Positions 128 through 48,986 of a stretch of DNA of 50,255 nt are shown here, piece by piece (position 1 is the first letter of the stretch; each line of letters starts with the position of its first letter). Source of the DNA: a phage; sequence record PV636259.1; one strand, written 5' to 3'. The notes below the pieces were generated by a model. That model searched no databases and was not told the origin of the DNA. It saw only the letters and a list, made by a program, of their open reading frames with translations. Made by a program: the position numbers and the translations under genes.

Positions 128-276
128 AGCGCGCTTGTAAATTCACGACGAGTCATTCCTGCGGCCTTAGCAAATCGCTCACTTTCCTTGTGGGCGTATA
201 TAAATTTCGCTATGTGCTGTCGAGTGTATTTGTCGTAACCTTCGCAGAACCTGAACAGATCTAAAAGAAGCAGCAT
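1..276 (-). CDS. Hypothetical Cys-rich protein, 5' part of an ORF that crosses the window junction (continues at 50128 down to 49997); about 135 aa in total
   Basis: ATG at 276 lies 4 nt after the stop of the 281..1849 gene. Hand translation MLLLLDLFRFCEGYDKYTRQHIAKF...CSRCVTESYLDCRDGFYWCKGK... runs in frame through position 1 and on into 50128..49997. Four Cys in CxxC/Cx6C spacing suggest a zinc ribbon. Confidence 0.45.
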   Translation of the reverse strand, partial: MLLLLDLFRFCEGYDKYTRQHIAKFIYAHKESERFAKAAGMTRREFTSALSKEFCSRCVTESYLDCRDGFYWCKGKIKRPVMMKLMCIDGYN

Positions 277-280
277 ATCA

Positions 281-1849
281 TTAACCCATCAGTCTAGGAT
301 TGATGAAAACAATATCATCAATGCGGCAAGTGTAGTTCATCTCTTCGAGCGTGATCAGCAGGCTGTCGATTCGCTCAGATACTTTCTGTTGACCGTTGAA
401 CGGCGTAACGTTCCGGCACTTTGCAACGATGCTATGAATAGGAGCGCGCCCTTTATTCTTCTTTGCGATCTCAGTGATAACATCAATCAGCTTACGAGAT
501 TCAGCCTCATCACCAGCATACCCGGCAGCGCTGGCAGACGACAGATAAGTCCTGGAAAGCTCATTAAAAATCATGATTGCTTCCTGCATCGTTTCAAGAT
601 CTATCTCACGATTGGAGCGGTTCGGAGATTCACCTTCCCAATTCTTTATCGTGTGAAGAACTGAAGCAATGCGCAATGCGTGCTTATCGAACTTACCGAG
701 ATGACCGCGTAGCATTGAGTGAGAGTATTTGCCACCTGCGGCGAAATCCGGCTCCATTGCCTGGCGCGCAAGGTTTAATTCACGCATAGCATTACGACTT
801 ACAGAAAGAACAACGTTTTCCTCCTTCATAATGTTGTGCACAAGTCGATAATATTTACTCACCAATCCTCGATCTACTTCCTTATACAGCGCATCACCAT
901 TTTCATCACAAAGAATACGAGTACCTAAAAGTGGTTCCTCACGAACTAAAAGGAAACGCTCAGATACGCCGATGCCTCGTTGGCCTGCGTCCATGATACC
1001 CTTGATTGTTTCATCCTGCGCAATAACGCAGATGGAACCGACCGGGCAAAGGGACAAGTTGTTATCCTGGTTGGAACGCGCTACCTCCATATGGTTTTTA
1101 TCCCACGCCTTAAGGATAAGCTCACTATTTGATTTCTTGTCTGAACCCCCATAAGTCAGGCCGAGCAATGTATTGATTGCTGTCGCCTCATCAGAGATTA
1201 CGGAGAAATGACCTTGAACAGCAGCTACCTTCGCAAGACCTTCAGGTGTAGGATCTGATACCGCGAAAACAATATCAGCCATCTTCTTGATCTTCTCTTC
1301 CAGTTTTTCTTTGTCTTCGTACAGCGCCGCCGTCGTGTTACCCTTCGGGTCGTTTTTAATTTCCTTCTCGACCTGACGTAGCTGACTGGTTAAGCGGATA
1401 CGCTCCTTTTTTCTCTCTTCGTTCAGTCGCTGAATTTCTGCACGCATAGGCGTAATCGCTGCGGAGTTAATCGCGGATTTACCTGTTGACGGTGGCTGGC
1501 TGATTACCATGTAAAGAGCGGTGGGTTGTTCTTCTCCGTGATATTGCACCCAAAACTTCCCGAGCATCGCGGCTGAGATGCACCCAATGAAATGAGCGTA
1601 CGCAGACGAAACAGGGAACTGTACAGACTCGGCCTTTGCTTTTGCATATTCGAATACCAGGTTATCGCCACCTAACGAAATCAGAGGGAACTTATCGTTG
1701 CCGCTATTGATATCGATCGGATCTTGCCAAAATGAAACTGAGTCACCATAGCTGTTTTCACGAATTGCGATTGCCACCGGATTAACTCCAGTGCTATTGG
1801 CGATCTCAATAATCTGTTGGTAATTCAGTTTTGGCTTAATATTAAACAT
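281..1849 (-). CDS. Large P-loop (Walker A-like PPSTGKS) protein, 522 aa; possible replication/recombination-associated NTPase
   Basis: Long ORF from the track; start moved to the ATG preceded by TAAGGAG (MFNIKPKL). Walker A-like motif and central K/E-rich coiled segment. Function not recognisable from sequence alone. Confidence 0.6.
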   Translation of the reverse strand: MFNIKPKLNYQQIIEIANSTGVNPVAIAIRENSYGDSVSFWQDPIDINSGNDKFPLISLGGDNLVFEYAKAKAESVQFPVSSAYAHFIGCISAAMLGKFWVQYHGEEQPTALYMVISQPPSTGKSAINSAAITPMRAEIQRLNEERKKERIRLTSQLRQVEKEIKNDPKGNTTAALYEDKEKLEEKIKKMADIVFAVSDPTPEGLAKVAAVQGHFSVISDEATAINTLLGLTYGGSDKKSNSELILKAWDKNHMEVARSNQDNNLSLCPVGSICVIAQDETIKGIMDAGQRGIGVSERFLLVREEPLLGTRILCDENGDALYKEVDRGLVSKYYRLVHNIMKEENVVLSVSRNAMRELNLARQAMEPDFAAGGKYSHSMLRGHLGKFDKHALRIASVLHTIKNWEGESPNRSNREIDLETMQEAIMIFNELSRTYLSSASAAGYAGDEAESRKLIDVITEIAKKNKGRAPIHSIVAKCRNVTPFNGQQKVSERIDSLLITLEEMNYTCRIDDIVFINPRLMG

Positions 1850-3979: not shown

Positions 3980-4035
3980 GGTGATTACCTCGTTTTCTGT
4001 TGATGGGAGAACTATAGCAGCCCTCCCGCATTTTC

Positions 4036-4054
4036 GTTTAGCAGAAAGTGCTAT
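4036..4054 (-). promoter_or_regulatory. Operator/promoter motif copy (minus orientation; AATAGCACTTTCTGCTAAAC) with downstream TATAGT and CATCAACAG leader
   Basis: Palindrome TAGCA-N5-TGCTA, then TATAGTTCTCCCATCAACAGAAAACGAGG, then the ATG of 3608..3979. Confidence 0.55.
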
Positions 4055-4240
4055 TTAGAATTTTACATCTTCAACAAGCTCAACCATTTTGTAACCAAGT
4101 CGATAGGAGTCCCCGAACAACAATAACCCCATAAATTCATCTTTGGTTATTGACTCCTTGCCAACAGTTTTAAGCTCTCCGTTGTGAATCACAGTATCGC
4201 CGATCTTGATTTCTGATTTGTGCACTAATTTCGTTTTCAT
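4055..4240 (-). CDS. Hypothetical small protein (61 aa)
   Basis: Track ORF. Confidence 0.45.
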   Translation of the reverse strand: MKTKLVHKSEIKIGDTVIHNGELKTVGKESITKDEFMGLLLFGDSYRLGYKMVELVEDVKF

Positions 4241-4255
4241 TTGTTAGCCTGTTAA

Positions 4256-4456
4256 TTAAAAGAATGCTACATAGTTTGCAATACCTTTAGCGTCGTCGTT
4301 AGGCATTGCCTTGACAGCCAAGTCATAACCAGCCTCTACCTTCTTCTTTGCTGACTCTTCGTTGTATCCCCAAATAACCAGGATTTTAACTACGTTTTCT
4401 TTGTTCAGGACTTTAAGTTCTTTAGTGATGCGACGTGCCATTTTGTTTTTCCTCAA
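4256..4456 (-). CDS. Hypothetical small basic protein (66 aa)
   Basis: Track ORF; preceded by a motif cassette with CATAAT -10 and CTCATCGAAACGAG leader. Confidence 0.5.
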   Translation of the reverse strand: MRKNKMARRITKELKVLNKENVVKILVIWGYNEESAKKKVEAGYDLAVKAMPNDDAKGIANYVAFF

Positions 4457-4498
4457 TCTCGTTTCGATGAGGTAATTATGCCAAATCGCACCGATCGA

Positions 4499-4519
4499 GT
4501 TTTAACAAAAAGTGCTATT
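4499..4519 (-). promoter_or_regulatory. Operator/promoter motif copy (minus orientation; GAATAGCACTTTTTGTTAAAAC) overlapping the stop of 4502..5206
   Basis: Full-consensus motif read as reverse complement; followed by CATAAT and the conserved leader. Confidence 0.55.
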
Positions 4520-5206
4520 CGCGATTGCTTTGAAAAATCCCCTTGGCGACAGAGATCGTATCAGTTTTGTTTTGGCAGACTTGCCGCCTAGCTTGCTGTG
4601 CTGTGCAGAGTACCCGTCAGGCAGTCTTACAGGTTTTCTTTCAGGCATGACAAAATCGTCAGAGGTCCACAGACAAGTTTTCTTCGGGTAAGCATCGCGC
4701 GGCGCAATATACATCGGGAACCAGGGGTGTGCGTCATTCTCTGGAAGATAGCCACCATACTCCCAGGGATTGAAGGAGTGATTTGGTTTTCTCCACGCAG
4801 AAGACAGGACGCTTACCGGATTCTCAATGATGTAAGTCACGCCCAGGCTATCGCCAATGTTCGCAGCAATCCGGGCGGTGGCAACAGCCTTCTCCTGGAA
4901 TAACGGATCGCGCTCACGCTTTCTGGCGAAGTGAGCAGCACCACTAACAGCCAGGTCAGTGCACGGCGGGAAGGCCATAATGAAATCAGGCTTGCCATAC
5001 ACGCCAGCGATAGCATCACGCTCGAACGCTGCGTCAATGAACACGTTCACATACTCAATGTTCGGATGCTCCACTCTGGCATTGTACTTTGCGTAATCTC
5101 CGTGATCGGCTCCGTCAAAGTTGAAGCACATCACCTTATGACCTTGCTTTGCCAGTTCATGACCAGCAAGCCCGGAACCGTCGAATAGTGACCAAATTAA
5201 TTTCAT
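4502..5206 (-). CDS. Short SAM-methyltransferase-like protein resembling the catalytic core of DNA cytosine-5 methyltransferases (234 aa)
   Basis: Order and spacing of FDGSG (motif I-like), FPPC (motif IV-like, Pro-Cys) and IENPV (motif VI-like ENV) match C5-MTase architecture; no target-recognition domain or motifs IX/X evident. First gene of the leftward early operon. Confidence 0.5.
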   Translation of the reverse strand: MKLIWSLFDGSGLAGHELAKQGHKVMCFNFDGADHGDYAKYNARVEHPNIEYVNVFIDAAFERDAIAGVYGKPDFIMAFPPCTDLAVSGAAHFARKRERDPLFQEKAVATARIAANIGDSLGVTYIIENPVSVLSSAWRKPNHSFNPWEYGGYLPENDAHPWFPMYIAPRDAYPKKTCLWTSDDFVMPERKPVRLPDGYSAQHSKLGGKSAKTKLIRSLSPRGFFKAIANSTFC

Positions 5207-5268
5207 CGTGACTTCCTCTTCTGATTGGTTTATGAGCTGGACTATACACGATCTACCCGACCGAGTCG

Positions 5269-5286
5269 TTAGCGAAAAATGCTATT
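5269..5286 (-). promoter_or_regulatory. Operator/promoter motif copy (minus orientation; AATAGCATTTTTCGCTAA) upstream of the MTase-like gene
   Basis: Followed on the minus strand by TATAGT and ACCAATCAGAAGAGGAAG RBS region, then the ATG at 5206. Confidence 0.5.
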
Positions 5287-5471
5287 CCAATAATTGCTCA
5301 TTATTCCATCAATACTGGAATATCTGGAATAATTACGATCATGATTGATCTCGAATGATGAAATGTGATTGTTGCATGGTGTGCAACAGTTGGTTGATTT
5401 GTTGCTTAGATTGCAATGATTGTGAGAGGGTGGATTTGGTGTTACCCGGTTCGCCTGGTGGTCATCTCCAT

Positions 5472-5490
5472 TTTTAGCAAAACGTGCTAT
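5472..5490 (-). promoter_or_regulatory. Operator/promoter motif copy (minus orientation; ATAGCACGTTTTGCTAAAA)
   Basis: Second copy in the control region, about 200 bp upstream of the first in the minus direction. Confidence 0.45.
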
Positions 5491-5893
5491 CGATTACACT
5501 TTAACTTGTCACGATTGTAATATTTGTCTAGAATCGCACTTGTGACAAAATTACGCACTGTGACGCCCCACAATAGACATATGGATATATGTATATATAT
5601 AATATATATAGTGTTTTTTTATTTATATATATAGATAATTATATTGTAATAGTTGTGTATAGCCGTCTTACATTGTCTAGCGTACTGTTGGCATATTTCT
5701 ATCTGCATGTTTATATATACAGTACTTTTTTGAGAGTCATATATTTCTATGTGTACTCTAGACAGCTAGACAAATGTTACACAGCTTAAAATTGGCTCGC
5801 AGGCATTGACGGCCCTGCATTGCGCTGTCACAATGGCAATTGTTGACATGTTATGACACCATTTACACATCAATAGACAAATGAGGATGGATT

Positions 5894-6409
5894 ATGAGCA
5901 ATACCAATCAGGAATTAAAAATCACCGATATGATTCGACTAACCTGCGATGCAATGTACCGCGACAAAGGCATGAATGAGTTCTCTTTCGTAGCTGATGA
6001 TATGGCCCTCGAAGCAGCGCGATTCTACTTTCGGGGCCAGGAAGTAAGCGATAGCGTTCTTGAATCTGCCGCTGCCGGATGGGTGGACCAGAATCAGGGT
6101 GAGGTGGAGAAGCGATTCAAGTCTGCTTTCATTACGCCAATCATTACCAGGCACTTTTGCAAGTATGGCAAGGTGGCAAAGGTGAAGGTGGGCCGGAATG
6201 ACGCCGCAATCACAATGATAACCGTTATCGTTACAGACGAAGAGGTTCCGGTGAAGAAACGCCGCAGCCGGAAAAAAGTTAGCCTGGCCGACTGCCTGGA
6301 TTCGTTTGATGTTGATGTTAGCAAACTATCCGATAGCGAGTTAATGGTTCGTGATGTGAATGAGATCGTGCGCCAGATGAAAGCACATATTGAAAAGTGT
6401 GGACTGTAA
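5894..6409 (+). CDS. Hypothetical protein (171 aa), first gene of the rightward early operon
   Basis: Track ORF; RBS GAGGATGG before ATG. Confidence 0.6.
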   Translation: MSNTNQELKITDMIRLTCDAMYRDKGMNEFSFVADDMALEAARFYFRGQEVSDSVLESAAAGWVDQNQGEVEKRFKSAFITPIITRHFCKYGKVAKVKVGRNDAAITMITVIVTDEEVPVKKRRSRKKVSLADCLDSFDVDVSKLSDSELMVRDVNEIVRQMKAHIEKCGL

Positions 6410-39026: not shown

Positions 39027-39443
39027 ATGCATATTATCACTGGCGAGATCCGCAAAGAACCTAAGATTATGGAGCGTAACGGCGGCAATACTTATATCAT
39101 CGAACTGGCAGAGAGCTATAAACCTCGTGATGGCGATCGAGAATACACCAACTACACATTCTTTTTTAGTGATGGTGGAAAGCCTGGCCTTGCTGACTGG
39201 TATCGTGAAGCGTTCCAGGTTGGTCGAGTTATATCTGTATCATGCGAAACGTTGAAGATCTCATCCCGTGAGCACAACGGAACGGTTTACAATTCATTGC
39301 AGGCCGCTGATTTTCCTAAGCTGGTATTCAGTCAACGAGGACAAAGCAATCAACAACAGCGATCGCCTCAGCAACAACAGCGAACTCAACAACAACCACA
39401 ACCGAACCCTCAGTCAACATTTGACGATGATATCCCATTCTGA
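39027..39443 (+). CDS. ssb: Single-stranded DNA-binding protein (138 aa)
   Basis: Gln/Pro-rich linker and acidic C-terminal tail ending DDDIPF. Confidence 0.75.
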   Translation: MHIITGEIRKEPKIMERNGGNTYIIELAESYKPRDGDREYTNYTFFFSDGGKPGLADWYREAFQVGRVISVSCETLKISSREHNGTVYNSLQAADFPKLVFSQRGQSNQQQRSPQQQQRTQQQPQPNPQSTFDDDIPF

Positions 39444-39447
39444 TAAG

Positions 39448-39475
39448 AAAGCCCCGCAATGCGGGGCTTTTCTTT
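39448..39475. terminator. Bidirectional rho-independent terminator (AAAGCCCCGCAATGCGGGGCTTTT)
   Basis: Between convergent ssb (plus) and tail fiber (minus). Confidence 0.7.
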
Positions 39476-41321
39476 ATGATTGTTTAAGTGATTTTATTTC
39501 TTCTTTTAGAGAAGATACTTGCTTTGAAAGCTCCTGTATCGAAGCTATAGCGTCAAGCAAAAGAACATTCTCATCCAGTGATAGCGTGTAATCTTCTCCA
39601 TTCATATTTCCGTACTTTCTAACGTACTGACTATCTATGCTCATAAGTTGTTGAGCTATGAACCCTCTCCTTACAGTTTTCTCCTTGTCATAATTGTATG
39701 TGAATGATCGGTATTTCATTTTCATCAAATTGTCAAGCGCCAATCTTGTTTCAATATCCTTTATGTCGCTTTTAAGTCTCTCATCTGACACTGGAGACTT
39801 GGAAAATATATAGTTGACAGTACCTGAGTTATTCCCAAACGTTATGTCGTAACTCTCAGCGTTGAACGATGTATTCCTTACAATGTCACCGTTTGGCTGA
39901 TTACCTGAAGCTATATCATAATCGTACACCTGAGATATTACCGCGTGAGGGTGAGAACCATCTGGAAAAATAAGCGAACCAAGAGAGATAAAATTCCTCC
40001 AACCGCCGTTGGATACACCAACGCCGCCACCAACTAGACCAATATAACCGCTGTACTGAGAACTCATCCATGTGTTAGCCAATGTCAAATAGGTATTACC
40101 TGGAGCATATCCAGTTCCATTTGGTACTAGACCCTTGTTAAAAATCAACTTTCCGTCCAGTTTGAAATCCCACGTTGCCGCGCCCTGCTTATATCTGTCA
40201 TTGATTGTTGTTATCCTTGTCCATATATCTATTTCATTACCTCCCTGCAATTCGAAAGAGGATCTGTACTTATCAACTTCACCAACCTTGAATTTTGAAT
40301 CAATCCTGCCGCCTGAAGAATCGGAACCTCTTGGCGGCTCAGAGTCTACATTTTTATAAATAGACCAGTCGTTTACTTTTAGGCCTTTCTCAACCCAACC
40401 CTTAGTAGTTGCGTCCATGTTGCCTTCAGGATCTTTAAGTAACTCTAATGGGGCGTCTGGCCTCAAGTTTTTCCATGATTCTAATTTATCCACAAGACCA
40501 GCTAGATTTCCATCCTTAGTTAAAAGGTTTTCAGCATTAACGCTATTTACTGCGTCTTTCGCTTCCTGAGCACTTACCGCCGCCGCATTTTTTGCGCTTA
40601 CCGCATTGTCACGCGCTACCTGAGCGTCATTTTTTGCAGAGGTCGCAGTTTGTGCTGCCGTTTGAGCGTCATTAACGTAACCAGATAAATCACCTTTCGC
40701 GTCATTAATGGCCTGAATCGCTGCCGCCTCTTCAGTGTCAATGTGAGTGATGACAGATGATTCCTTAGATCCTATATCAGTAATAGCCTGATCCTTTGCT
40801 GCATTAATACTACCTACAGCACCGTCAACAATTTGTTGAGTCTGGTTCTTGATTGAGTTAGTTTCATCTCGTGCAGCGTTGGCTGCGTCACGCGCTAATT
40901 CAGCCTGATTTTGCGCAGCTTGAGAATCAGATTTCGCCTGATTCACCTCAGCAACTATTTGCTCAAGTTTATCCATATCAAGCTGATTGATGATATCAAG
41001 AGCCGCAGCAATCTCAGTTTCTTTGCTCTGGTAGTATCGCAGCGTTTCAGCAACGTTTTGAGCTAAGCCATTTACAGTCAGTGAATCGTTAAGCAGGATC
41101 ACATACTTACCGTCAGCAGCAGTCTGACCATCCGTAGAGATAGCCTTTAACTCAGTGTCGCTCACGATATCGCTGATTACAGCCAGCTTAATTGGTTGCT
41201 CTAGGAATACGATAGTTGCACCTACTCGAATCAGAGCAAGCTGATCCTTCCATTTTGTATCGGTTCCGAGAACCGTTCCATCCGCATCCATTGATGCTGT
41301 ACCGCGTCTATATAAAGCCAT
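39474..41321 (-). CDS. Tail fiber protein with C-terminal intramolecular chaperone (peptidase S74-like) domain, 615 aa
   Basis: N-terminal virion-attachment-like region, long Ala/Gln-rich coiled coil, Gly-rich beta region, C-terminal SDERLKSDIKDIE...RRGFIAQQL... segment typical of autoproteolytic chaperone domains. Confidence 0.65.
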   Translation of the reverse strand: MALYRRGTASMDADGTVLGTDTKWKDQLALIRVGATIVFLEQPIKLAVISDIVSDTELKAISTDGQTAADGKYVILLNDSLTVNGLAQNVAETLRYYQSKETEIAAALDIINQLDMDKLEQIVAEVNQAKSDSQAAQNQAELARDAANAARDETNSIKNQTQQIVDGAVGSINAAKDQAITDIGSKESSVITHIDTEEAAAIQAINDAKGDLSGYVNDAQTAAQTATSAKNDAQVARDNAVSAKNAAAVSAQEAKDAVNSVNAENLLTKDGNLAGLVDKLESWKNLRPDAPLELLKDPEGNMDATTKGWVEKGLKVNDWSIYKNVDSEPPRGSDSSGGRIDSKFKVGEVDKYRSSFELQGGNEIDIWTRITTINDRYKQGAATWDFKLDGKLIFNKGLVPNGTGYAPGNTYLTLANTWMSSQYSGYIGLVGGGVGVSNGGWRNFISLGSLIFPDGSHPHAVISQVYDYDIASGNQPNGDIVRNTSFNAESYDITFGNNSGTVNYIFSKSPVSDERLKSDIKDIETRLALDNLMKMKYRSFTYNYDKEKTVRRGFIAQQLMSIDSQYVRKYGNMNGEDYTLSLDENVLLLDAIASIQELSKQVSSLKEEIKSLKQS

Positions 41322-45463: not shown

Positions 45464-46177
45464 ATGAAAGACTTTAATGATATCGAAACCATAGACTTTG
45501 CAGATACTGGGTGCTCATTCACTCGTGAAGCAATAGCATCAGGCGGTTATTATCAGGCACTGAAAACGCCGACCTGCAAAGAGATTTCAGGTCGTAGATA
45601 CAAGGGAACCAATACACCTGACGCCGTTCGTGATTTATGGTCAACTCCACGCGAGGTTATTGCATACCTTGAAGGGCGTTATGGGAAATATGATCTCGAC
45701 GCTGCTGCAAGCGAGGAAAATAAAGTTTGCGATAAGTTTTATTCCCAGGAAACAAACTGCTTGAAGCGTTGGTGGGGAAAGAATAAGCACGTTTGGTTAA
45801 ATCCTCCTTATAGCCGACCTGATATATTCGTCAAGAAGGCCATTGAGCAAATGGAGCACAACAATCAGATCGATATTCTTTTACCCGCAGATAACTCTAC
45901 GGCGTGGTTTACTGAGGCGCGGCAGAACGCAGCTGAAATCATCTGGATTGAAGCGGACTTGACTGAGGATGTTGACGGAAATGAATACGCACGATCCGGT
46001 CGCCTGGCTTTCATATCCGGTGAAACTGGAAAGGCCGTAGACGGCAATAACAAAGGTTCGGTAATTTTTATTATGCGCGAACTTAAAGAAGGTGAGGTGC
46101 AACAGACTCACTACATCCCAATCACAAGCATTTGCCCTTCGGTGAAAAACAAACGAGCAAAGGTGAGGAAAGTATGA
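45464..46177 (+). CDS. dam: DNA N6-adenine methyltransferase (Dam-type), 237 aa
   Basis: WLNPPYS (NPPY catalytic motif). Confidence 0.7.
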   Translation: MKDFNDIETIDFADTGCSFTREAIASGGYYQALKTPTCKEISGRRYKGTNTPDAVRDLWSTPREVIAYLEGRYGKYDLDAAASEENKVCDKFYSQETNCLKRWWGKNKHVWLNPPYSRPDIFVKKAIEQMEHNNQIDILLPADNSTAWFTEARQNAAEIIWIEADLTEDVDGNEYARSGRLAFISGETGKAVDGNNKGSVIFIMRELKEGEVQQTHYIPITSICPSVKNKRAKVRKV

Positions 46178-46491: not shown

Positions 46492-46701
46492 ATGGCACGC
46501 ATTAACGCAAACTTTTTCAATATCGCTCAACAGTCCGCAAAAATGGCTGTTCATATCACTGACAAGAAAGGCGGTAACTTTGATTGGGATATTGCTATGA
46601 ACTTCCTTAAAATGGCTTATTACCTCTGCTCAGTCAAAGATGTTGAGTGTTTTATTGAAAGCGTGGAGAAACTAACCAATGCTGATAAAAAAACAAGGTA
46701 A
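46492..46701 (+). CDS. Hypothetical protein (69 aa)
   Basis: Track ORF trimmed to the ATG after GAGGAATAAGAAG. Confidence 0.5.
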   Translation: MARINANFFNIAQQSAKMAVHITDKKGGNFDWDIAMNFLKMAYYLCSVKDVECFIESVEKLTNADKKTR

Positions 46702-46951
46702 ACGAGAGGTTTGGGAGCACGCGAAGGAATGCGGAATCTCAGACGATATAGCACTAATAGCGAAATATTTCGATATAAAGGATGTTAGCATTATCTCAAA
46801 TGGCAAGATTTCATTTATGGAAGATATGCCGAGAAAAATGCATAGAGTGCCAGCAACTCCGTCACTTGAGTTTTATCGTGAAGAGGGAAAGAGAATTGAG
46901 AGAGAACGAAAAGCAGCAAAGAACAACAAGCCTTCCAGGCTTAAACATTAA
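46679..46951 (+). CDS. Hypothetical protein (90 aa)
   Basis: Track ORF; overlaps the previous gene by 23 nt across an A7 run. Confidence 0.45.
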   Translation: MLIKKQGKREVWEHAKECGISDDIALIAKYFDIKDVSIISNGKISFMEDMPRKMHRVPATPSLEFYREEGKRIERERKAAKNNKPSRLKH

Positions 46952-47183
46952 CGAAGACGATTACCAGACCATATGGATCGGAAAGAAACAAGTTAAGAAA
47001 ATCCCTTTCTCTGATTGGTTGCCTCCTGACTTCGTTAACGTGCTTTGCACTATTGGGATCGAGCAAGAGTTGCATATAGGTTATTACTCACCAGGTAGAA
47101 ACAGCATGATGCTTGAGGTTGATGGAAAACTGGTTGAGTTTAAATCTTCAGATCTAGGATTCTGGTTAAAGGCTGTGGCATGA
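46782..47183 (+). CDS. Hypothetical protein (up to 133 aa); true start unresolved
   Basis: Track ORF overlapping 46679..46951 by 170 nt in the +1 frame; the downstream part looks protein-like. Confidence 0.35.
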   Translation: MLALSQMARFHLWKICREKCIECQQLRHLSFIVKRERELRENEKQQRTTSLPGLNINEDDYQTIWIGKKQVKKIPFSDWLPPDFVNVLCTIGIEQELHIGYYSPGRNSMMLEVDGKLVEFKSSDLGFWLKAVA

Positions 47184-47261
47184 GACTTTATTTTGCTGTA
47201 GTATTAACACCGCTAATTTCATTTTCAGTAATGTATTTCATTATCATGTAAGGATTAAAAT

Positions 47262-48413
47262 ATGTCACAAGCTAAAATCACTACCGAGCAACTTATCGAA
47301 GAGCGCATGAGCGGCCTTACACTTCGCGAGATTGCGGAAAAGTACGGTATGCACATCCGCACAGTTGAAGCGCGTCACGCAAAACTTGCAAAAGAAGGCC
47401 ACTTCCACGGCAACGAGCATGTTGCTAAAAACGTTCCAGAAGGATTCATGGTAAAAGGTACATCTACTATGATTCGCGGTGATGGGACGGAAGTTGTTCG
47501 ATGGGTTAAGACCGATCAGGACCGTGAGAAGATTGCGGCAATGATGGAAGCGGCGCGTATTGCATTCTGTGAAGACCTGCCGCGAGCAAAGCCAACTGAG
47601 CTACTAACCTCACAAGGTCTTACAACAGCGATTGGTAAGCTGGCACTCTATCCGGTATTCGATCTTCATATCGGTGCGCTTGCTCATAAGCATGAATGCG
47701 GAGAGAACTATTCCACCGACGTAGCGGAAAAAGTGCTTAGCGACTTCTTTAATTACGCGATCGATATTGCTCCGAACGCAGAGAAGGCAGTTCTTTTAAT
47801 CGGCGGTGACTTCCTTCACTCGGACGGTCTTGATGCTGTTACCCCTGCAAGTGGTCACGTTCTGGATCAGGATTCACGATATGCAAAATTGGTGCATGTA
47901 GCTATTAGATCTGTTCGTCGCGCTATCGACAAAATGCTACTGAAACACAAGGAAGTCGAAGTCCAGGTTATCGAAGGGAACCACGACCAGGCAGGGATGA
48001 TTTGGCTACGCGCTGCAATGTCGGCATATTATGAAGACGAGCCGCGAGTATTCGTTGACGTTAGTCCTATGATTCTGCATAAGACCCGCTGGGGAAATAC
48101 CTTGTTGGGATACACTCACGGTCACACGATGAAAAAGGCAGACACGCGACTTGCAGCGATGGCGGCAGACTTCCGTGCAGACTTCGGTGAAAGCAAATAC
48201 GTGTATACTCACAGCGGACACTGGCATCATCAAACAATCACAGAGCACTCGCTTGGTATTGATGAAGTGCACGGTCAGTTAGGCGCGAAAGATGCATACG
48301 CAGCACGCGGAGGGTGGCGCTCATATCGCCAGGCGGCTGTAATTGTTTACGATAAGCAGTTTGGGGAAATAGGTCGCTTCATCTATCGTCCAGAAATGAC
48401 AGGATCGCACTAA
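47262..48413 (+). CDS. Calcineurin-like metallophosphoesterase with N-terminal helix-turn-helix segment (383 aa)
   Basis: Phosphoesterase motifs DLHIG, GGDFLHSDG, EGNHD, YTHGH, THSGHWHH; N-terminal LTLREIAEKYGMHIRTVEARHAKL HTH-like segment. Confidence 0.65.
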   Translation: MSQAKITTEQLIEERMSGLTLREIAEKYGMHIRTVEARHAKLAKEGHFHGNEHVAKNVPEGFMVKGTSTMIRGDGTEVVRWVKTDQDREKIAAMMEAARIAFCEDLPRAKPTELLTSQGLTTAIGKLALYPVFDLHIGALAHKHECGENYSTDVAEKVLSDFFNYAIDIAPNAEKAVLLIGGDFLHSDGLDAVTPASGHVLDQDSRYAKLVHVAIRSVRRAIDKMLLKHKEVEVQVIEGNHDQAGMIWLRAAMSAYYEDEPRVFVDVSPMILHKTRWGNTLLGYTHGHTMKKADTRLAAMAADFRADFGESKYVYTHSGHWHHQTITEHSLGIDEVHGQLGAKDAYAARGGWRSYRQAAVIVYDKQFGEIGRFIYRPEMTGSH

Positions 48414-48424
48414 TTGATAAAAAC
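48406..48424 (+). promoter_or_regulatory. Operator/promoter motif copy (variant CGCACTAATTGATAAAAAC) + hairpin GCCCGAAGGGATTCGGGC + ATAGTA + CACATCGAAAC leader
   Basis: Read directly. Confidence 0.5.
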
Positions 48425-48475
48425 GCCCGAAGGGATTCGGGCATAGTAACCACATCGAAACAAAGAGGCTATATC

Positions 48476-48652
48476 ATGAAGCTAGTTAAGTGCATCCGAA
48501 ATGACTCCAAGACACTTCCATTCCGTGTAAATCAGATCTATAGTGTTGGTTATGATTTCTGTGGGGGATTATTTGAGATTTACGACGGGCGAGGTTCAGC
48601 AATCCAAGCGCCTCTGAACGGTCACTACCTAGAATTTATTGCGATAGATTAA
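48476..48652 (+). CDS. Small protein (58 aa)
   Basis: Hand-found ORF MKLVKCIRNDSKTLPFRVNQIYSVGYDFCGGLFEIYDGRGS... after AGAGGCTATATC RBS; below track cutoff. Confidence 0.4.
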   Translation: MKLVKCIRNDSKTLPFRVNQIYSVGYDFCGGLFEIYDGRGSAIQAPLNGHYLEFIAID

Positions 48653-48770
48653 CAATATCATTCATCACCTTACAGGCTGGCATGATTTACATGCTGGCCT
48701 TTTTGCGTTGTATCAAATAAATTTGAAGGTTAAAATCGACTCACTTGTTCAAAAAATATATGGTGAGATT

Positions 48771-48986
48771 ATGAAAGAATTTTTAACAGCTGCGACGTCC
48801 AGCACGGGCGGCGCTTCATTAGTCGGGGCCGCTACCGGGCAACTTTACATTGCTGGCGCTACATTCATTTGCTTTCTGCTTTTTGGCGCTTGGGGAGCAT
48901 ACTGGAAGTATCGTGATAGTAAGGCGATTCAGGAAGCGTTAAACGATGGCGATCTAAATAAGGCGCTTAAGATCAGGGGGAGATAA
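48771..48986 (+). CDS. Holin (71 aa)
   Basis: Small hydrophobic protein ([21 protein letters not shown]) with charged C-terminus, immediately upstream of the endolysin with overlapping stop/start. Confidence 0.6.

Follow-up and report, generated by a model that had tools for sequence, protein, structure and literature searches.

The gene at positions 4502..5206 of the window (the whole 50,255-nt stretch of phage DNA in sequence record PV636259.1) very probably encodes, judging by its sequence, a solitary (orphan) SAM-dependent DNA cytosine-5 methyltransferase (C5-MTase) belonging to a compact, phage-borne family. Annotations of this gene already exist in near-identical T1-like coliphages, and both the activity of the family and its role as a trigger of retron Ec86 have been published. 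An earlier note on this DNA, made without database searches, had read the product as a minimal C5-MTase-like protein, possibly of unusual specificity, and was unaware of the annotation in near-identical public genomes.

Location and relatives of the methyltransferase gene

Sequence comparison identifies the window DNA as that of a T1-like coliphage (Drexlerviridae, Tunavirus). The gene and its surroundings include the following features.

4502..5206, minus strand: coding sequence of the predicted solitary Dcm-like DNA cytosine-5 methyltransferase, 234 aa, PHROG 757 (705-nt ORF starting with ATG)
5212..5218, minus strand: Shine-Dalgarno-like GAGGAAG, 5 nt before the ATG of the methyltransferase gene (read off the sequence)
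5207..5893, no strand: AT-rich non-coding gap of 687 bp between the methyltransferase gene and the divergent plus-strand genes (from the ORF list)
4012..5263, no strand: accessory segment of about 1.25 kb without counterpart in T1, with two 61-aa ORFs alongside the methyltransferase gene (window compared with T1 by BLASTN)
45464..46177, plus strand: second, unrelated methyltransferase of the Dam (N6-adenine) type (PF05869, E 2.4e-69)

The gap at 5207..5893 contains only ORFs of 20-66 aa, with none of at least 40 aa on the minus strand, and the rightward (plus-strand) genes begin at 5894, divergent from the methyltransferase gene. Therefore, the leftward block begins with the methyltransferase ORF, directly left of the gap, which is the position that the earlier note had given it. 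The gap is presumed to be a divergent promoter region; the count of promoter-like matches within it was not above the shuffle expectation. A sigma-70-like site with an 11/12 match lies inside it on the plus strand (5574..5603), there are long TA-rich tracts such as CTATATATATAAATAAAAAAACACTATATATATTATATATATACATATATCC on the minus strand, and an inverted repeat (5366..5392) falls exactly where the T1 genome end maps. The earlier note had also placed a Dam-type methyltransferase at 45464..46177 and considered two base-modification activities possible. The PF05869 match confirmed the former, and the counterparts of this gene in the BASEL phages Bas13 and Bas06 are annotated 'Dam-like N6-adenine methyltransferase'; since the phage also encodes Dam, the presence of both m6A and m5C is plausible.

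Matches with 88-95% nucleotide identity link the region to the phages ADB-2, CLB_P3, SH6, ISF002 and JMPW1 and to many others, and the gene is labelled 'DNA methylase' or 'DNA cytosine methyltransferase' in several of the matching records. The window protein is identical at 231 of its 234 residues to the product of bas13_0055 (QXV82492.1) of the BASEL phage LeonhardEuler, annotated 'Dcm-like C5 cytosine methyltransferase', whose gene likewise heads the leftward block in Bas13, about 690 bp from the divergent gene. It is 95% identical to JMPW1 gp77 ('DNA methyltransferase') and shares 55% identity over 228 aa, that is, over the full length, with the product of bas06_0055. A TBLASTN comparison of the protein against phage T1 found no homologue, so the methyltransferase gene is an accessory gene. 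The insertion of about 1.25 kb is flanked on one side by T1 gene 1 and on the other by the right physical end of that phage's genome (T1 46623..48836). The T1 right end (48730-48836) aligns to window 5264-5370, the T1 record stops at window position 5370, and the gap 5207..5893 is the window counterpart of the physical end of the T1 genome. The two 61-aa ORFs of the insertion (4055..4240 and 4256..4441) match PHROGs 3623 and 7717, which have no assigned function.

Local differences among the relatives were also observed. JMPW1 has a 70-aa ORF (gp78, JMPW1 163..375) that overlaps the methyltransferase gene at its start. This ORF is cleanly missing from the window at about 5207..5250, and the upstream leader that the two share is conserved. 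Several other relatives also align in two pieces around the start of the methyltransferase gene. Immediately downstream of the methyltransferase gene, the window segment 4027..4455, which contains the two 61-aa ORFs, is not homologous to Bas13 39279..39660, which holds a single 111-aa ORF (bas13_0054). Since both flanks are 93-95% identical between the window and Bas13, a local mosaic swap has taken place here.

The window protein matched PHROG 757 ('DNA methyltransferase') over residues 1-231 (E 1.3e-83). Homologues were detected by TBLASTN in 1,519 of 50,697 phage records, among them T1-like phages of Escherichia, Shigella, Klebsiella and Salmonella, rV5-like myoviruses, Dhillonvirus and the 165-kb myovirus ECD7. 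A protein database held more than 4,800 relatives and, among the matches listed, essentially all have 225-260 aa; an exhaustive profile search yielded 1,912 clusters at 50% identity, and the best 150 of the 1,912 mostly measure 205-260 aa. As the relatives are nearly all of similar short length, 234 aa is the norm of the family and does not reflect truncation. What the earlier note had regarded as an unusually short protein has a length within the 210-260 aa shared by thousands of relatives. Species-representative bacterial genomes of many phyla contained 131 relatives, which presumably sit in prophages. Bacterial chromosomes or MAGs with relatives include those of Photobacterium, Yersinia, Photorhabdus, Rhodobacter capsulatus, Burkholderia, Desulfovibrio/Bilophila, Bifidobacterium, Arthrobacter and Planctomycetota, and several of the bacterial matches span residues 75-228 only.

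Predicted fold, motifs and place among the C5-MTases

The AF2 model of the window protein (pLDDT 89, pTM 0.88) has a class-I Rossmann-like methyltransferase fold, with seven core strands forming the sheet and C-terminal helices. The earlier note had named a predicted non-Rossmann fold as evidence against its reading; the seven-stranded core of the model is Rossmann-like. The best Foldseek matches were DNMT3A and DNMT3B (E ~2e-6). The characteristic motifs I (FxGxG), IV (PC) and VI (Glu) appear in C5-MTase order as F8xG10xG12, P81-C82 and E128-N129-(P130). Conservation within the family was read from two alignments, one of 34 closer members and one of 79 diverse members, and the elements of the protein are listed below.

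5171..5185, minus strand: motif I, F8-D-G-S-G12, the SAM-binding loop after strand 1 (G10, S11 and G12 invariant in the 34 closer members)
4961..4972, minus strand: motif IV, F79-P-P-C82, with the predicted catalytic cysteine (C82 invariant in the 79 diverse members)
4814..4828, minus strand: motif VI, I127-E-N-P-V131, with the ENV-type glutamate (E128 and P130 invariant in the 79 diverse members)
4667..4684, minus strand: K175-K-T-C-L-W180, last core strand, at the position of motif VIII (strand 177-181 in the model)
4577..4660, minus strand: short loop, residues 183-210, in place of a target-recognition domain (lower model confidence)
4535..4558, minus strand: R217-S-L-S-P-R-G-F224, C-terminal element leading into the last helix, at the position of motif X (helix 222-230 in the model)

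FDGSG was located at residues 8-12, FPPC 71 residues on (79-82) and IENPV another 48 on (127-131), and the motif residues are conserved in the family, so that the motifs are no chance matches; the C5-MTase order and spacing recognized in the earlier note are thus present. In HHalign comparisons the motif I segment, which follows strand E3-7 in the model, aligns with LSLFDGIATG of DNMT3A. The C82 motif aligns with the PC of DNMT3A, E. coli Dcm and M.HhaI, and motif VI aligns with LENV of E. coli Dcm and lies in register, not significantly, with FENVV of DNMT3A. The residue that follows the catalytic-type Cys is Thr (P81-C82-T83), as the earlier note had read. Its view that Thr in place of Gln is unusual found no support, because DNMT3A carries PC-N in the same PCxDL context.

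The C-terminal part of the core is less readily matched to known motifs. The literal consensus residues of motif VIII (QxRxR) and motif X (GNxV) are missing from the window protein, and comparisons of residues 100-234 with DNMT3A (global pairwise and sliced-profile HHalign) gave no significant or consistent alignment. In the model, and in the model only, strand 177-181 and helices 211-217 and 222-230 occupy the places expected for motifs VIII-X, so that motifs VIII and X can be assigned provisionally; the KKTCLW strand is a candidate for motif VIII by topology alone. K175, T177 and W180 are invariant or nearly so in both the 34- and the 79-member alignments. R217, S218, L219, R222 and G223 are invariant in the 34 members, and R217, S218, P221 and G223 nearly invariant in the 79 diverse ones. 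By eye, and with no significant alignment, KKTCLWTGN resembles RARYFWGN, and RSLTPRGF resembles RLLGRSWS, of DNMT3A. The earlier note had held the protein to be too short for motifs IX and X, but the modeled chain appears to run on into conserved C-terminal helices at the motif X place. In agreement with that note, no distinct target-recognition domain was found between motifs VIII and IX: the last core strand is followed by just about 30 residues (183-210) before the C-terminal helices start, and these residues have pLDDT values of 69-82 as compared with 91-98 in the core. There is also a highly conserved insert that separates motif VI from the last core strand (residues 138-175, with W138, R139, F145, P147, L154, D158, P161, D171 and Y173). 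This insert, which may contribute to DNA binding, has no sequence-level counterpart in the classical C5-MTases compared, a comparison that included one DNMT3A sequence only.

In sequence searches, the family is only thinly linked to the C5-MTases. The window protein had no Pfam or NCBIfam match at E<=10 and did not reach the gathering threshold of PF00145. Nonetheless, 19 of 34 relatives matched PF00145 at E<=1, and three of the six members checked singly exceeded its cut-off of 22 (P0007, 28.5; P0012, 24.7; P0045, 25.4 bits), with matches that cover profile positions 4-94 only, corresponding to motifs I-IV. The 79-member profile aligned with the DNMT3A catalytic domain (query sequence 100% identical to 5yx2_A) over motifs I-IV with E 2.3e-4 (HHalign). 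By the same method the family profile aligned with E. coli Dcm over motifs IV-VI only (E 0.023) and weakly with M.HhaI over motif IV only. When the 34- and 79-member profiles were searched against PDB sequences, no solved C5-MTase was reached. TrwG, ToxD and borneol dehydrogenase, which appeared in PHMMER or profile searches of the PDB, were chance matches only.

The protein shares its fold and the order of motifs I, IV and VI with E. coli Dcm, M.HhaI and M.HaeIII (PF00145). However, the classical C5-MTases have 327-472 aa with a large target-recognition domain between motifs VIII and IX, whereas the window protein has 234 aa and no such domain; it has PCT and ENP where they have PCQ and ENV. 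Unlike E. coli Dcm and the enzymes of type II systems, it is accompanied by no Vsr partner or cognate endonuclease. Assignment to the E. coli Dcm type (CCWGG-specific and Vsr-linked) was rejected, since the homology extends over motifs IV-VI only and there is no Vsr-like neighbor. The layout of the window protein, a core without target-recognition domain, is nearest that of the DNMT3 catalytic domain. Identity to DNMT3A and DNMT3B is about 14-16% and their catalytic domain is about 50 residues longer; they carry PWWP/ADD regulatory domains, and DNMT3L/3B3-containing tetramers act on CpG.

Published homologue and predicted chemistry

A homologue of the window protein has been studied in phage K42, which is 95.4% identical to the BASEL phage KarlJaspers/Bas06 (Wang et al., bioRxiv 10.1101/2023.08.16.553469; the journal version is cited in PMC12640716 as Cell Rep 2024;43:114857). 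In that study, 4/4 K42 escapers from retron Ec86 disrupted the 711-bp dcm gene, two K42 escapers had a single-base change located 9 bp before the dcm start codon, and expression of K42 Dcm was toxic solely alongside Ec86. LC-MS analysis showed high levels of 5mC in msDNA with wild-type K42 Dcm and not with C82A/E128A/K175A/K176A, and the retron response depended on the same four residues, K175 and K176 having been mutated as putative substrate-binding residues. The authors also superposed an AlphaFold model of K42 Dcm on DNMT3A (bioRxiv 10.1101/2023.08.16.553469). The Bas06 genome (MZ501090.1) carries bas06_0055, a gene with the 711-bp length of K42 dcm and the annotation 'Dcm-like C5 cytosine methyltransferase'. 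C82, E128, K175 and K176 have the same numbering in the window protein, the bas06_0055 product and the K42 Dcm mutant. K42 Dcm and the products of bas06_0055 and bas13_0055 resemble the window protein in belonging to PHROG 757, in length and in these four key residues. The LC-MS result together with the identity to bas06_0055 means that 5mC-in-DNA chemistry has been published for a clear homologue.

The chemistry of C5-MTases is established and comprises base flipping, attack of a Cys on C6, action of a Glu at N3 and beta-elimination. In the window protein, the target cytosine would be flipped out of the duplex DNA, Cys82 of motif IV would attack C6, and Glu128 of motif VI would protonate N3. 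The FDGSG loop would hold SAM, whose methyl group would then move to C5, and beta-elimination would free 5-methylcytosine. The protein would consist of a full catalytic core plus the loop of about 30 residues (183-210) substituting for a target-recognition domain. The likely benefit is that methylated replicating phage DNA would be shielded, alongside the action of Dam, from some cytosine-sensitive host nucleases. The cost would be the one known from K42 Dcm, where 5mC on the msDNA of retron Ec86 (Eco1) turns on abortive infection. For the window protein, we infer the protective role, the activity and the target by analogy.

Other activities were considered. The enzyme could transfer a group other than methyl, such as carboxymethyl from Cx-SAM, or the 5mC it makes could be the first step of a hypermodification (5hmC, glycosylation); both variants of this reading are very unlikely. 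An enzyme that carries out the former is CmoX, which has an SPPC motif, a Cx-SAM-binding Arg in motif X and linkage to cmoA (PMC12783734). This phage DNA cytosine C5-carboxymethyltransferase (PDB 8yf3) is about 100 residues longer than the window protein and is typically encoded beside CmoA and a ligase, neither of which is found near the window gene or in Bas13. The CmoX type was rejected, the window protein having FPPC rather than SPPC and there being no CmoA or ligase in Bas13 or among the neighbors; no alignment was obtained at the position of the Arg. More generally, neither the neighbors nor the near-identical Bas13 genome yielded a TET, glycosyltransferase, CmoA, Vsr or nuclease partner. 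This lack of partner enzymes, together with the 5mC made by the homologue, makes both hypermodification and non-DNA readings unlikely. The earlier note had proposed a hypermodification or hydroxymethylation step, a non-DNA SAM enzyme or a modification-dependent anti-restriction factor. None of them, the last understood as a non-modifying factor, found support, given the lack of partner enzymes and the LC-MS detection of 5mC in DNA for the 55%-identical homologue.

Methylation of RNA (as in Dnmt2-like tRNA m5C formation) or of a small molecule is barely plausible: DNA methyltransferases outscored Dnmt2, K42 Dcm methylates msDNA in vivo, and the family is spread over lytic phages with many different hosts, a distribution easier to reconcile with protection of DNA than with host-specific tRNA editing. 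No more credible is a catalytically dead relic or DNA-binding decoy that does not modify DNA. The missing Pfam match of the window protein would suit such a reading, as would the dispensability of the gene: K42 mutants lacking dcm, the escapers, remain viable (bioRxiv 10.1101/2023.08.16.553469), and T1 lacks a homologue. Nonetheless, no variation was seen within the family at the catalytic Cys, the ENV Glu or the SAM loop, and the retron response requires the same residues in K42 Dcm. An active DNA C5-MTase is the explanation that we prefer.

Target sequence and consequences

As a DNA C5-MTase, the window protein may select its cytosines through the short loop at residues 183-210, a putative recognition element. 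The loop occurs in two variants within the family, GYSxQHxKLGG in the window protein and NPGWAK(L/T)GG in Bas06 and K42. At the putative recognition segment (about 190-206) the window protein reads GYSAQHSKLGG and K42 Dcm reads DNPGWAKTGG, so K42 Dcm and Bas06 differ from the window protein in having the NPGW-type instead of the GYSxQH-type loop. The CCWGG target of K42 Dcm was carried over from E. coli Dcm (bioRxiv 10.1101/2023.08.16.553469). In the same work, mutating CCTGG in the msDNA stem abolished defence, and 5mC in the msDNA of dcm+ MG1655 was low until the phage enzyme was made. The CCTGG mutants could equally reflect disturbed contacts with the effector and not the methylation site. 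The low 5mC in dcm+ MG1655 indicates that the phage enzyme does something that the host Dcm does not.

A refinement of the preferred explanation, and not an alternative to the C5-MTase identity, is that the window protein is an active enzyme with a target other than CCWGG, shorter or different, and that the loop variants could read different sequences. We regard this as quite possible, if somewhat short of probable. It is favored by the low msDNA methylation in dcm+ MG1655 before expression of the phage enzyme, a similarity to E. coli Dcm that does not extend past motifs IV-VI, the missing target-recognition domain and the difference in loop 190-206 between the window protein and K42 Dcm. The loss of defence by msDNA mutated at CCTGG argues against it, as does the lack of CCWGG avoidance in the genomes with this gene. 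The observed/expected ratios for CCWGG were 0.92 in the window (98 versus 107), 0.95 in Bas13, 1.03 in Bas06 and 0.82 in T1; as T1, which lacks the gene, gives 0.82, the frequency of CCWGG is uninformative on specificity. A literature search found no base-resolution methylome of T1-like phages and no direct data on PHROG 757 specificity.

A bolder and more doubtful proposal is that this family of about 230 aa represents the smallest autonomous DNA C5-MTase. It would read its target in a new way, through loop 183-210 and/or insert 138-175 and possibly as an oligomer like DNMT3. The target would not be CCWGG, and the GYSxQH and NPGW variants would write different motifs. If this were true, the 'Dcm-like' annotation would be misleading, and the rules for Ec86 triggering and for escape from restriction would need to be redrawn.

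A phage with this gene and Dam is expected to bear m6A and m5C marks, and a phage so marked may resist some restriction enzymes. Sensitivity to retron Ec86 would be expected as well, and methyl-dependent (type IV) nucleases might also act on such a phage; this could be of practical use in the choice of phages or hosts. In the BASEL study, methyltransferase genes had no simple relation to restriction resistance in Drexlerviridae (PMC8594841), which leaves the protective role of the window gene presumptive. The window, Bas06, Bas13 and T1 all strongly avoid most of the 6-bp palindromes tested. Observed and expected counts in the window were 1/25.7 for RCCGGY, 0/16.7 for AAGCTT, 0/9.6 for GGATCC, 0/7.8 for GAATTC and 1/12.1 for GGCGCC; sites little or not avoided were GATATC (29/28.4) and GATC (255/320). 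Bas06, a Hanrivervirus, avoids GATATC (1 versus 10.4 expected), unlike the window, and is nearly free of CCSGG (2 versus about 12 expected), of which the Tunavirus genomes compared have 65-72 sites. The avoidance of CCSGG and GATATC in Bas06 points to a different restriction history of Hanrivervirus and Tunavirus.
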